Notes under the pieces: model-generated
Told to the model about the DNA's origin: nothing
Databases searched by the model: none
The model's input: the letters and a program-made list of their open reading frames with translations, nothing else
Assembly: GCA_044892525.1 (NCBI GenBank)
Contig: CM097885.1
Coordinates: forward strand, 21,702,001 to 21,766,000
Direction: 5' to 3'
Source of the DNA: Schmidtea polychroa
Lineage: Eukaryota
Length of the DNA: 64,000 nt
Part shown: in pieces, positions 58,183 through 64,000 of the stretch
Layout: the number at the start of each line of letters is the position of its first letter
How positions within the stretch are numbered: the first letter of the stretch is position 1
Made by a program: the position numbers and the translations under genes

Positions 58183-59929
58183 GATATAAGTGATAATAAT
58201 TAGTAAGCATAAAGTCGAAAGATAATTTTAATAACACAGAGATAAAATTAACAATATTATTCTCAGGTGGTAAGAATCTTCATTAAAGTTAGGAAATTAT
58301 AAGAACTAGCAATTGCTATAAAGTATTTAATCGAATTTGTTTTTGTTGTTTTATGTCTTTCGGTTATATTTGAGTAAGTTTTCGTGTGATACATCTTGCT
58401 AGTATTTTATTTTATTTTTAATTCGGTTATTTTATTTTTGGGTCTATTATCCCTCTATTATCATTGTTTACTTGGTGTTTTCATATATTTTTATTTAAGT
58501 AAATTTAAAGCTGGGTAGGCATGTTGTATACTGACACACTTTGTCCCCTTTTTAACTTTGAAGGATCCACTGTTTTATTAAGTCTTTTAGGGTTAATGAT
58601 CCATTTACTTGGTTTTGACAATGAAATATTTGAAATCTTTAGAATTAATTGGGATTGATATCAAAGGTTATTTCTTTAAATTATTTTATTTAAGAAGTTA
58701 TTTTATTCATTGTGGGGATATCAGTGAAGGAATATATCATGATGATAAAATTAGCTGGTTTCAACTTTAGATTTTCAATATTTAAAAGTTCATCAATATT
58801 CTTAGAAAATATATGAACAAATTATTTAGTCAAATTCAATATCATTACAAAGTCATCATAAAAATTAAATAATAATCACTTGATTATTGTAAACCTCTAA
58901 TTATTAACCTAACTGTCATTAAAAATAATTTTTATTTAAAATTAAATTTAAAAATAAGTCAATGAAATATAGCAAATTAACAAGAAATTAATTAAATTTG
59001 TCTTAGAATTAACACTAAAACCTGAAATTTTTAAATATTCTTCCAATTATTCACAAAAAATGTTAGTAATAATGTTAGTAAAATCCCGCTAACTCTAAAA
59101 TATTACCAATGATTTTAATGTCAAATAATAACCAAAAATTTGCCTAAATGAAATCATTAAAACACATCAGTGCCTTTACGACCAGTACCCTTACGAGCAG
59201 TACCCATAGAGGGAGAAAATATCTTGTCGGATAAACTCAGAGTATATATAATAAAACGAATTAACAATAACTCCATCAAATTGAATCAGTTATAATATTC
59301 ATCAATTTCATAAAAATTCATAAAAATGATCACTTTAATAAAATATATTTAATACAATTTAAAAAATATTTGTGGGGAGGATATAAGTGATAATAATTAG
59401 TAAGCATAAAGTCGAAAGATTATTTTAATAACACAGAGATAAAATTAACAATATTATTCTCAGGTGGTAAGAATCTTCATTAAAGTTAGGAAATTATAAG
59501 AACTAGCAATTGCTATAAAGTATTTAATCGAATTTGTTTTTGTTGTTTTATGTCTTTCGGTTATATTTGAGTAAGTTTTCGTGTGATACATCTTGCTAGT
59601 ATTTTATTTTATTTTTAATTCGGTTATTTTATTTTTGGGTCTATTATCCATCTATTATCATTGTTTACTTGGTGTTTTCATATATTTTTATTTAAGTAAA
59701 TTTAATGCTGGGTAGGCATGTTGTATACTGACACACTTTGTCCCCTTTTTAACTTTGAAGGATCCACTGTTTTATTAAGTCTTTTAGGGTTAATGATCCA
59801 TTTACTTGGTTTTGACAATGAAATATTTGAAATCTTTAGAATTAATTGGGATTGATATCAAAGGTTATTTCTTTAAATTATTTTATTTAAGAAGTTATTT
59901 TATTCATTGTGGGGATATCAGTGAAGGAA
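58183..59929. repeat. 550-bp near-identical direct repeats (58183-58732, 59380-59929)
   Basis: Offset 1197; about 3 substitutions seen. Confidence 0.9.
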
Positions 59930-61743
59930 ATTTATGATTTTAATTAGATTTCTAGAAATTAAATCGGTTGAATATTAAGGGTAAAAAAAAATCTATTGAA
60001 GGAATATTGTTATCGGATGGATAAATCTTTCAATGATATTTTGCTAAATTACCTTTGCTAAATATTATTTTAAAGGACTAAAAATGAGAAAATTAAGCAA
60101 TTTTCATAAATTGATTGCATAAAATATATATGTTTTGGTAAAAGTTACTCAAACATTTTAACCTATACGACCATGTATTTCTCACAAAGATATATTACAC
60201 CCAATGATCATCTCAATTGTAACCCTATATTTCTAACTAATAAGCACTTTAATTGGTCAAATGATAACTAATGATCATGTTTCTATTATGACTCCTTTTT
60301 GCCTCGAACAAAGATAGAAATTTACTCCAAATGACAAAGAATTTCTACCAAAATCATCAATAAATATATTAATGACCATGCATTTCTCACGAAGTTATAT
60401 AAATTATTGTAATGAACACTAGATGAATAAATTATCTATGAAATGCTAAATATTCATATCTTACCTTTTGCTAAATATTATTTTAAATAACTAAACATGA
60501 CAAAGTTAACCAAAATATTAGTCGCTCGAAATAAGAATTCGGTAAGTTACATTCAAATTATTCATGAATTTCTGATATCTATGATAATCCATTTCTCACT
60601 AAATTACCTAAGAATTTTTAACTAATATACATATGCCTTAATTAATATACCCTTGCGACATGTGACCAGTACCCTTTCGACAAATAAACATAGGGGGACA
60701 AAATATTTTGTCGGATAAATTCAGACTATATATAGATACTTACAAAATGCTATGGTTTTTATTGATTAATTTGTTGTATATTGCATTGATACATCAAAAT
60801 GTATTTAAAATAACCTTTCACTAAATTGTCTAAAAATTTGCTATATGGTATTGTTAAATAAAATAATCATAATAATAATAAATAATAATATTATGTCAGG
60901 GCATGAAAAAATAATATAATTGTATGACTAATAAATTTGCAATACAAGTGCATAATTAACAAAGACTTTGCAATAAATGGGCATGATTAACAAAGACACT
61001 AGAAATATTATCTTTGCATTTTGTCGAAGATGATTATGGCAGTAATATCAGAGGAGAATCAATGGACAGAAGAAAAGCATCATTATGATTTATAATAATT
61101 GTAAATATAATTGTAAATATTATGGTATATAATATATAATTGTATATATAATTGTAAATTTCCATATATATAAATAATACTATTTAAAAAAAAAATTAAT
61201 ACAAATATTAAAACAAAATGAATTAATAATGAATATGTTTTAATCAAAAGGTATTAATATAAAACAATAAATTTATAAAAACAAATTAAAACATTTATTT
61301 ACGAAACAATAATAACCAATACTACTGCAACATATAATGGCAACTTTAAAATATTGGTTAGGGTTTCTTCTGCTTTTCCAGCATCTTCATGGTTTTTGCG
61401 AAGATCTTTTTCCATTTTGATGAACTCATGGGTATATTTCATTCTGAATAATCTAAAAATAATATTATAAATACCAAACCATCCATCATATCATCAACAT
61501 TTGGTAGTTGCGCCCAATATATTTAATTACCAAGATAATTTCATATTATTCAATGTTTGAAAATTTTCTACATTATAGTACCGTCATTATGTATGGTAAT
61601 AATTCATTTGACTTTGATATTGTATTGAGAACTTACATGTATATATTATGATATTTATTAATCAGTGTTGAACAGGCTTGACAATTGTGAACATTCTTCT
61701 CGTGACACTTAGAACAAACAATTACGTGACAAGTATTGAGAAC

Positions 61744-62043
61744 TTACATGTATATATTATGATATTCATTAATCAGTGTTGAACAGGCTTGACAATTGTG
61801 AACATTCTTCTCGTGACACTTAGAACAAACAATTACGTGACCACGCGGTAAATACAAAACCGAAACTTGATTTTCTTTACAAATTGAACAAGTTAAATAC
61901 CTTTTCTTAACATCGTTCAGTTTTTCCGTTAGCTTATTTTCAATCAAATCGGTTTTTGCTATCCATTCATAAATCAAATTAGTGTTTTCAAAATCTAGAA
62001 ATATTAACCATGGTAGAACCTTCAAATGTCTAAGTAACATCAT
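61744..62043 (-). CDS. IAP-type C-terminal RING (C3HC4) protein, probably degenerate
   Basis: CSICKENQVSVLYLPRGHVIVCSKC..NCQACSTLI..IYM (third Cys replaced by Arg); last 111 bp tandemly duplicated at 61622-61732. Confidence 0.7.
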   Translation of the reverse strand: MMLLRHLKVLPWLIFLDFENTNLIYEWIAKTDLIENKLTEKLNDVKKRYLTCSICKENQVSVLYLPRGHVIVCSKCHEKNVHNCQACSTLINEYHNIYM

Positions 62044-62071
62044 ATTGTATAACAATAATAATAAGCATGAC

Positions 62072-62150
62072 TAGTACCCTTGCAACCTGTTGAGTGTGAG
62101 CAGTACCCATAGGGGGACAAAATATTTTGTCGGATAGACTAGGAGTTTAT
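62072..62150 (-). promoter_or_regulatory. Family cassette TATATA..TATCCGACAAAATATTTTGTCCCCCT..GGGTAC (also 10090-10202 +; 15485-15563, 59171-59250, 60648-60734, 63366-63444 -)
   Basis: Six copies, all in Maverick-related DNA; this copy lies about 30 bp upstream of the RING ATG. Confidence 0.6.
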
Positions 62151-62949
62151 ATATATATATATATATATATATATATATATATATATATAATAATAATAAT
62201 AATACTAATAATAATAATAATAATAATAATAATAATAATAATAATAATAATAATAATAATAATATACTTTGAAAATAAATAATAAGAAATTTGAAAATAA
62301 TTTTGAAAATGATAATAATAATATTTTATAAATAAAATAAGAATTTTGAAGAAAATAATCATGAAAATATTGAAAATCGTGAAAATTATGAAAATGTTAA
62401 AAATCATGAAAATGATGAAAATCATGAAAACGTTAAAAATTATGAATTATGATTTATGAAGTAAATAATAATAAAACATCGAAAATAAAATAATAAGAAC
62501 TTCGCAAAAAATAATAATAATAGTAATAATTATAATAACAATAATATTGATAAAAACTTTGAAAATAATTTTAAAATAATTCTTTGAAAATAATACTTTG
62601 AAAAATATTCGATGAAAAGTTCCTGAAATAATCATGAAAATGTTGAAAATCGTGAAAATTATGAAAATGTTAAAAATTATTAAAATAATCATGCAAATGA
62701 TGAAAATGTTGAAAATCATGTAATTGACGTAGAAATTAAGTTTTATGAATATTTAAGTAAATAATAATATTGAAACTTCTAAATTAAAATAATAATTAGA
62801 ACTTTGCAAATAATAATAAAAATAATAATAATAATAATAATAATAGGAGTTTTACAACATTTATTTCAAAAATACACTGAATGAGATTCATGGATTATGA
62901 CACCACAACTCTGACATCTAATAAAGTTTTTCAAACATAAGGAACAAAT

Positions 62950-63315
62950 AATGATATGACCTTGAAAATAATAATATTTAGAAAATAATAATATGACCTT
63001 GAAAATAATAATATTTTGAAAATAATAATATGACCTTGAAAATAATAATATTTCGAAAAATAATAATATGACCTTGAAAATAATAATATTTCAAAAAATA
63101 ATAATATGACCTTGAAAATAATAATATTTCGAAAAATAATAATAATACGACCTTGAAAATAATAATATTTTGATAATAATAATATGACCTTGAAAATAAT
63201 AATATTTTTAAAAATAATAATATGACCTTGAAAATAATAATATTTTGAAAATAATAATATGACCTTGAAAATAATAATATTTTGATAATAATAATATGAC
63301 CTTGAAAATAATAAA
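62950..63315. repeat. ~37-40-bp tandem repeat (ATGACCTTGAAAATAATAATATTT..)
   Basis: About 10 copies visible. Confidence 0.88.
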
Positions 63316-64000
63316 ATAATAATTATAGAGTTATAATAATGTTAAAAGTATAATAATAATATTAATACCCTTGGGACATGTTGAATGTGAGCAGTACCCC
63401 TAGGGGGACAAAATATTTTGTCGGATAGACTAGGAGTATATATAATAATAATAATATATTTTGAAAATAAATAATAAGAAATTTGAAAATAATTTTGAAA
63501 ATGATAATAATAATATTTTATAAATAAAATAAGAATTTTGAAGAAAATAATCATGAAAATATTGAAAATCGTGAAAATTATGAAAATGTTAAAAATCCAT
63601 GAAAATATTAATAACTATGAAAATCATGAAAATGTTGATAAAGTTGGATATTATGAAAATATTGAAAATTATTAAAATATTCATGCAAATGATGAAAATG
63701 TTGAAAATCATGAAATTGACGAAGAAATTAAGTTTTATGAATATTTGCAAATTATAATAATAATAATAATAATAATAATAATACAAATAATAATAATATT
63801 AATAATAATAATAATGATAATAATGATTAAAACTTTGAAAATAACAACTTCCGCGCGGGCGTTAATATCTTTTCCAATAATAATGATAAATTAAATTATT
63901 ACGTAATCGATAATTAAAACAAAAAAAATATTATATAATCAACGATTTAAACAAAATTAAATTATTACATATTCGGTAATCAAAACAAAAATATTATTAT

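Follow-up and report, generated by a model that had tools for sequence, protein, structure and literature searches.

Repeated short modules are known from several kinds of virus-like and mobile DNA, and they form the background for a cassette that occurs six times in a 64,000-nucleotide stretch of the Schmidtea polychroa genome (assembly GCA_044892525.1, contig CM097885.1, positions 21,702,001 to 21,766,000 of the forward strand; the whole stretch is called the window here), chiefly inside two probably Maverick-ended elements, A and B. A polinton-like virus carries a common promoter motif ahead of several of its genes (10.1101/2022.07.28.501842), and the early motif of PgVV/Gezel-14T and the late motifs of mavirus and Sputnik are likewise short motifs repeated before some open reading frames (ORFs), with cores of about 8 bp that a helper giant virus reads. 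In baculoviruses, the homologous regions (hrs) and the non-hr origins are interspersed units that combine an imperfect palindrome, direct repeats and AT-rich DNA; the hrs are clusters of 3–8 units of about 64 bp, with a palindrome in each, in circular genomes, and serve as both enhancer and origin (PMC4535591). Vertebrate Mavericks (Polintons) have termini beginning 5′-AG, as (AGT)2 or (AG)3, and accessory regions beside their ends (PMC8097293). End features of HLE2 elements used for comparison were taken from PMC11417382, and further background from PMC6431247.

Set against these systems, the nearest functional parallel to the cassette would be the promoter motifs common to genes of polinton-like viruses, and in build it somewhat resembles a single hr unit, but it belongs to neither group. 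Like the viral motifs it is a short sequence repeated before some ORFs, but it has a gapless 44-bp core plus boxes, it resides in an animal's integrated, decayed elements, and an ORF lies behind only a minority of its copies. In contrast to the hrs, it has one dyad per site, of unconserved symmetry, and its host element probably has Maverick ends. With Maverick/Polinton accessory regions and non-autonomous derivatives, elements A and B appear to share AG-starting ends, a 6-bp duplication (inverted in element A) and small accessory-type genes beside the ends, whereas the parts scanned hold no core gene and the arms are satellite-rich and rearranged. No description of an internal Maverick cassette of this kind was met in the literature searched, outside which most subscription papers lie.

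The cassette and its six copies

The cassette is genuine, a cis module with sharp boundaries that is linked to the elements, and any function it has is putative. Six copies, named c1 to c6 by position (10090, 15563, 59250, 60734, 62150 and 63444), lie where the original prediction had placed them, and exactly these six share a 44-bp core without gaps in the 64-kb window. With a leave-one-out profile the held-out copies scored 51.6–66.2 bits, far above chance, while the next site in the window scored below 0 and 20 local shuffles reached at most 3.9; the same scan found no further or partial copies in the window. Pairwise identity within the core is 80–98% (mean 0.86) against a mean of only 0.32–0.48 in flanks of equal length, which bears out the claim that the cassette is better conserved than its surroundings. 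The predicted co-orientation and spacing of about 1.3–1.5 kb in element B also held, with core-to-core distances of 1484, 1419 and 1291 bp. The placement of the cassettes within Maverick-like elements needs one amendment: five copies belong to AGTAG-ended elements, but c2 lies outside any recognisable Maverick-type end.

The core spans from a TATATATA-type run at one end to a CCCCCT run at the other and contains a 16-bp palindrome, and it is accompanied by 2–5 GGGTA-type boxes per cassette, spaced 15, 22 or 29 bp. The copies are as follows.

10090..10200, + strand: c1; core 10090-10133, palindrome pairing 4/8, five boxes at 15-bp spacing, in element A
15484..15563, − strand: c2; core 15520-15563, c6 subtype, outside recognisable ends
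59161..59250, − strand: c3; TATATATA, core 59207-59250, palindrome pairing 6/8, boxes 15 bp apart, c1 subtype
60647..60734, − strand: c4; core 60691-60734, palindrome perfect, inner box decayed, two outer boxes 22 bp apart
62074..62153, − strand: c5; core 62110-62153, palindrome perfect, two boxes 29 bp apart
63365..63444, − strand: c6; core 63401-63444, palindrome perfect, two boxes 29 bp apart

The best-kept letters of the core are the TATATA run with its fixed spacing, the TGTCG half of the palindrome and an A-run, and the symmetry as such is not kept. In all six copies a TATA-type run stands at a fixed distance from the conserved half, and the spacer between them varies in its letters and is constant in length. 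Since no insertion or deletion interrupts the 44 bp and the spacer differs in letters only, the pattern resembles that left by spacing-dependent protein binding.

The palindrome had been described as perfect, and so it is in c4–c6 (8/8 pairs), but c2 retains 7/8, c3 6/8 and c1 4/8 pairs, without compensatory change; the second, imperfect palindrome is present as spelled in c6 only. Because the palindrome is not the conserved feature, the operator, hairpin and recombination-site readings offered by the original prediction are weakened. Consensus folding of the six sequences gave two-sided changes in 0/14 and 1/11 predicted pairs, none of them within the palindrome, and Rfam had 0 matches in the window; a structured non-coding RNA, with no Rfam family and no covariation support from the six sequences, was rejected. 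Every copy has at least two boxes, and c4 lacks the inner one; cassettes hold 14 of the 64 TACCC words in the window. A derivation of the boxes from the 14-bp satellite of the element arms was not significant (shuffle p 0.05–0.97) and was dropped.

Two subtype pairs can be told apart, c1/c3 (84% alike over 103 bp) and c2/c6 (80% over 132 bp), and within each pair the neighbours differ, divergence setting in within 0–100 bp of the cassette. As minor features, ATAAAC is present in c1–c3 and absent from c4–c6, and CCGCGCG, a word rare in the AT-rich window (4 hits), stands at 15574, 10 bp past the TATA side of c2, and at 63851, about 400 bp past that of c6.

Wider occurrence was followed in four (X1, X3, X10 and X14, the last labelled as another organism) of 24 listed public runs, none of which is recorded as RNA; all four consist of contigs, which were aligned at 80% likeness to 58740-62160, a stretch covering c3–c5; depth in contigs is not copy number and cannot rank the parts of a stretch. 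The alignments comprised 48,030 pieces in X1, 9,481 in X3, 962 in X10 and 1,736 in X14, many at or below 90–95% identity, and covered 30/30 bins in each of X1, X3 and X10 and 27/30 in X14. With thousands of diverged pieces over both the core and its flanks, both belong to a large, diverged family. The suggestion of an element-linked module thus gains from core and flanks being repeated together. Among the 15 joints listed of 173, there was no precise removal of the cassette and no abundant empty site; two of these joints do remove a cassette, at depths of 525 and 620 against about a million locally. Cassette bins exceed the median of the other bins by 1.4–6.2 times in X1 and X3 and by 42–195 times in X14, rough values that are not copy numbers; those from X1 and X3 show only that there is no excess of the cassette by orders of magnitude. 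Exact and degenerate core patterns found 0 matches in viral contigs and 0 and 0 in metagenome contigs, and two viral hits obtained with the loosest pattern were taken as chance, their flanks having nothing in common with the cassette.

A candidate promoter module and the genes behind it

The reading we tentatively favour, at a likelihood somewhat below even, is that the cassette may be a promoter/enhancer unit that heads small accessory genes, such as a RING gene, and was duplicated with them in gene-sized units of about 1.3–1.5 kb. TBP or a similar factor would bind the TATATA run, and a sequence-specific factor the invariant TGTCG half together with the iterated boxes; transcription would start inside the core (transcript starts usually lie 25–30 nt after a TATA) and run through the boxes into the gene. 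Cassette-plus-gene units would have been duplicated, and in non-autonomous derivatives such as A and B the genes would have decayed, been shortened or been replaced by rearrangement, the module meanwhile staying recognisable. Arguing for this are the gapless spacing, two RING remnants in sense behind cassettes, and a core far better kept than the RING DNA with which it is paired. The genes concerned are listed here with one further gene, near c2.

61747..62043, − strand: RING ORF, 99 aa, Pfam zf-C3HC4_3 (C3HC4_3), E 4.5e-8, 31 bp behind c5
62872..63314, − strand: second RING remnant, in sense behind c6; 62872-62961 similar to the C-terminus of P0001
14933..15420, + strand: coiled-coil gene, 73% to P0007/P0008, N-terminal coding part out of frame

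The last 79 aa of the RING ORF are 94% identical to the 163-aa homologue P0001, and one predicted zinc-ligand position is substituted. Its homologues, P0001 (a cluster of 5) and P0002, match these last 79 residues only, so the ATG at 62043 is not the start used by the homologue; the N-terminal half of P0001 has no good match in the window. The original prediction of a copy about 30 bp upstream of the RING ATG was therefore right as to position, the ATG lying 31 bp past the outer box of c5, but the form that starts there is short, its first ~20 residues being unmatched in P0001. One X10 contig spans 61911-62072 without gaps and differs from the window at 25 of 162 letters; the junction of the cassette-side start with the RING body therefore exists in another, diverged copy as well. 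In the searches made, the protein atlas returned for P0001 only generic RING clusters, below 0.9, and for P0007 nothing, and the viral contigs encoded no relative of the RING or coiled-coil proteins. RING bins are about 5–6 times higher in X10 than in the DNA-like runs, a difference not counted as expression, since contig depth cannot rank the parts of a stretch; X10 is itself only guessed to be RNA.

New here are the second RING remnant behind c6 (48% identity over 31 aa to the C-terminus of P0001, E 1.5e-6) and the contrast between the c5 and c6 cores, alike at 43/44 positions, and their RING DNA, alike at 52/96. The box regions of the two units agree at 30/36 and the TATA-side flanks at 237/310, and by these values the c5 and c6 units are, on sequence grounds, old paralogues. 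A 37-bp satellite (62946-63314) has grown from the first codons of the second remnant. That remnant adds to the promoter option of the original prediction, but the idea of a fixed distance to a conserved ATG is lost.

A good deal weighs against a promoter. Most copies head no gene: RING sequence lies in sense behind 2/6 cassettes and an open ORF behind 1/6, and in 1/6 copies the proposed direction of reading meets, within 250 nt, the start of an ORF with at least 25 codons beyond the cassette. The c1 cassette continues directly into the 14-bp satellite, c2 faces the 3′ end of the coiled-coil ORF, whose stop is about 60 bp away, and c3 and c4 have no identifiable gene behind them in ORF, Pfam and PDB checks. 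At c5 an upstream ATG opens 26 codons that overlap the RING start. The two RING cases, being paralogous units, are not independent, and a stretch of 44 gapless bases is long for an RNA polymerase II promoter. In the window, neither the H2B remnant nor the coiled-coil gene is preceded by a cassette. In the public runs, three X10 contigs depart from the window sequence at 61977, near the start of homology, so that another RING 5′ form exists; and in X14 16 contigs diverge from c5 within the TATATA run and 5 from c3 ahead of the boxes, so that variants without the full run or the boxes exist. Planarian Polintons are targets of PIWI-interacting RNAs and are de-silenced during differentiation (PMC8532177, whose available passages name no motif), so these Polintons have working promoters.

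The coiled-coil gene matches P0007/P0008, proteins of 164–165 aa that are hydrophobic at both ends and belong to no family, and its product is predicted to be secreted or anchored. ATAAAC and TATAAA stand about 40 bp before its start.

Replication, passenger and rolling-circle readings

The same repetition could instead reflect an hr-like replication origin or a recombination site, which we regard as rather unlikely. The boxes would bind an initiator or a recombinase and the TA/TAA tract would unwind, and defective elements that reiterate the cassette would be copied better, or would swap segments between co-oriented copies. Boxes, imperfect dyad and AT-rich tract do resemble baculovirus hr units (PMC4535591), and an origin region is over-represented in defective baculovirus genomes (PMC13148896). 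One nearly gene-less element carries four or more copies of the cassette, and both orientations to the left end are found, c1 pointing the opposite way to c3–c6. Yet the hrs are clusters of 3–8 palindromic units, against a single dyad per site here, lost in 3/6 copies without compensation; no recombinase or Rep gene was found in the scanned parts; and the replication of Mavericks is expected to be primed at the termini (PMC8097293).

The original prediction had also offered a recombination site for cargo-gene cassettes, to be checked by whether cargo switches at the cassette. Same-subtype copies (c1/c3 and c2/c6) carry different cargo close by, and contigs join half of one cassette to half of another (60663 to 59206 in X14; 62128 to 59227 in X3), but ordinary subtypes would explain such joints as well. 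Among the 24 loose ends listed of 2266, only 6 lie at cassettes and 18 elsewhere, and the ~550-bp duplication in element B breaks elsewhere too. In sites of the lox, dif or attC type the dyad stays symmetrical and exchange does not extend beyond the site; here the symmetry is lost in half the copies and, with cargo differing near the cassette in two subtype pairs, most of the listed loose ends are away from it.

Unlikely as well, and slightly more so, is a functionless passenger repeat, for instance the remnant of a small TA/TAA-tailed mobile element; it would have entered the family a single time, after which segmental duplication and gene conversion would have multiplied it and kept its copies alike. 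Element B is rearranged, duplicated and satellite-ridden throughout, (TAA)n runs surround c2, c5 and c6 (the TATA side of c5 carries a (TA)n(TAA)n tract), the majority of copies have no ORF behind them, and conversion between nearby copies could yield 43/44 identity without selection. Against a passenger, conservation is graded and sharply bounded, falling from core to boxes to flanks to RING DNA; partial copies are absent from the 64 kb; and the core is well covered in X14, labelled as another organism, where 3/30 bins are uncovered, a rough measure in which depth is not copy number.

Improbable, in our view, is a Helentron- or HINE-type rolling-circle end that was fixed in Maverick-type arms, its repeated ends marking rounds of gene-fragment capture. 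In c4 the outer box shares 10 nt, and in c5 11 nt, with the subterminal inverted repeat (subTIR) of Drosophila Helentron-40 (PMC4067079, PMC2374699), a match of little weight because the comparison was chosen post hoc. From the TATA run it is 14 bp to the end of the palindrome and about 43 bp to the inner box, distances within the ranges of 8–35 and 38–60 bp given for mite HINE 3′ ends in PMC4067079; an adjoining microsatellite and central repeats are further likenesses to Helentron-40, DINE-1 and HINE ends, and both RING remnants are truncated near a cassette. The other features tested fail. The boxes are direct and not inverted repeats; no inverted partner follows c2–c6 before the next cassette or the window end, c6 having 556 bp behind it; TT directly precedes the outer box in 0/6 copies; the listed joints show no abundant empty site; and the hairpin, although its position fits a 3′ stem-loop, is broken in 3/6 copies without compensatory change.

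More improbable by a shade is a combination of these, a bifunctional hr- or attC-like site of an animal Maverick lineage, possibly a former Helentron end, that would drive the gene behind it and also serve as the point of reiteration or swapping for gene-sized accessory units. If true, it would amount to an integron-like cargo system in virus-like elements. Within the literature searched, the activation of accessory genes in animal Mavericks and the internal sequences needed by defective derivatives are little studied, and a 44-bp gapless module in very many copies gives a concrete handle on both. If cargo exchange or replication were marked by the cassette as well, it would reveal the way in which Maverick derivatives with few genes spread and are reshuffled in the genomes of flatworms; as a promoter alone it would be useful, though a modest addition.

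The host elements and their surroundings

Elements A and B share a satellite-rich left arm of about 3 kb, and the following features delimit them and the repeats of element B.

6207..9200, + strand: left end of element A, inside a PI4KA intron, homologous to the left end of element B
55620..58180, + strand: left end of element B, with AGTAG terminus, G/C tracts and 30-, 13- and 14-bp satellites
58183..59950, no strand assigned: direct duplication, 58183-58752 = 59380-59950 at 98–99%, breakpoints not at a cassette
59930..60640, − strand: about three diverged repeats of ~205 bp behind c4

Ends reading AGTAGGTAGATAGT lie at 5676, 6207 and 55620, and all three begin AGTAGG, which agrees with (AGT)2 in 5/6 letters. 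Element B is inserted cleanly in the fourth unit of a tandem array with a 3871-bp unit, the other three units being empty at that site, and it runs past the window edge, so that only its left arm is whole in the window. The setting of element A is rearranged: the 6-mer before 5676 is the exact reverse complement of that before 6207, an inverted 6-bp duplication, and the element's other end and target duplication appear to have been inverted and displaced within the PI4KA intron. A 31-bp copy of the element A end lies 530 bp upstream of it (5670-5706 against 6201-6237). As to paired terminal inverted repeats, only left arms are whole in the window, and a reverse fragment occurs in each 3871-bp unit.

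None of the Maverick core-gene families (pPolB, integrase, ATPase, protease, capsids) was found by Pfam in the 12 ORFs scanned, nor in frames read through stops as X over 9780-11300, 15570-17100, 43617-47487 and 58740-61750, which is compatible with a non-autonomous derivative. From the AGTAG-type ends, the clean insertion, the 6-bp duplication and the lack of a core gene in the scanned parts, A and B are likely, though not proven, to be Maverick-ended and non-autonomous. Maverick expansion has been reported in the genus Dugesia (10.64898/2025.12.11.693146).

The ~205-bp repeats at 59930-60640 were considered as a decayed BIR array and rejected, reading them through stops as X having given no Pfam or PDB match; they are well covered also in the run labelled as another organism. 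The units of the tandem array (43617-55619) are more than 99% identical, and the array holds a decayed H2B-like gene beside the reverse fragment of the arm satellites, as well as a RING-like remnant on the − strand and a stretch judged by eye to be transposase-like, with no Pfam hit. A long terminal repeat retrotransposon at 17721-33393 has identical 1660-bp repeats and a gag ORF (Retrotrans_gag, zinc knuckle). The host PI4KA gene extends over 2195-13716, and its last exon has its best named matches in flatworms only, namely cestodes, schistosomes and a monogenean.

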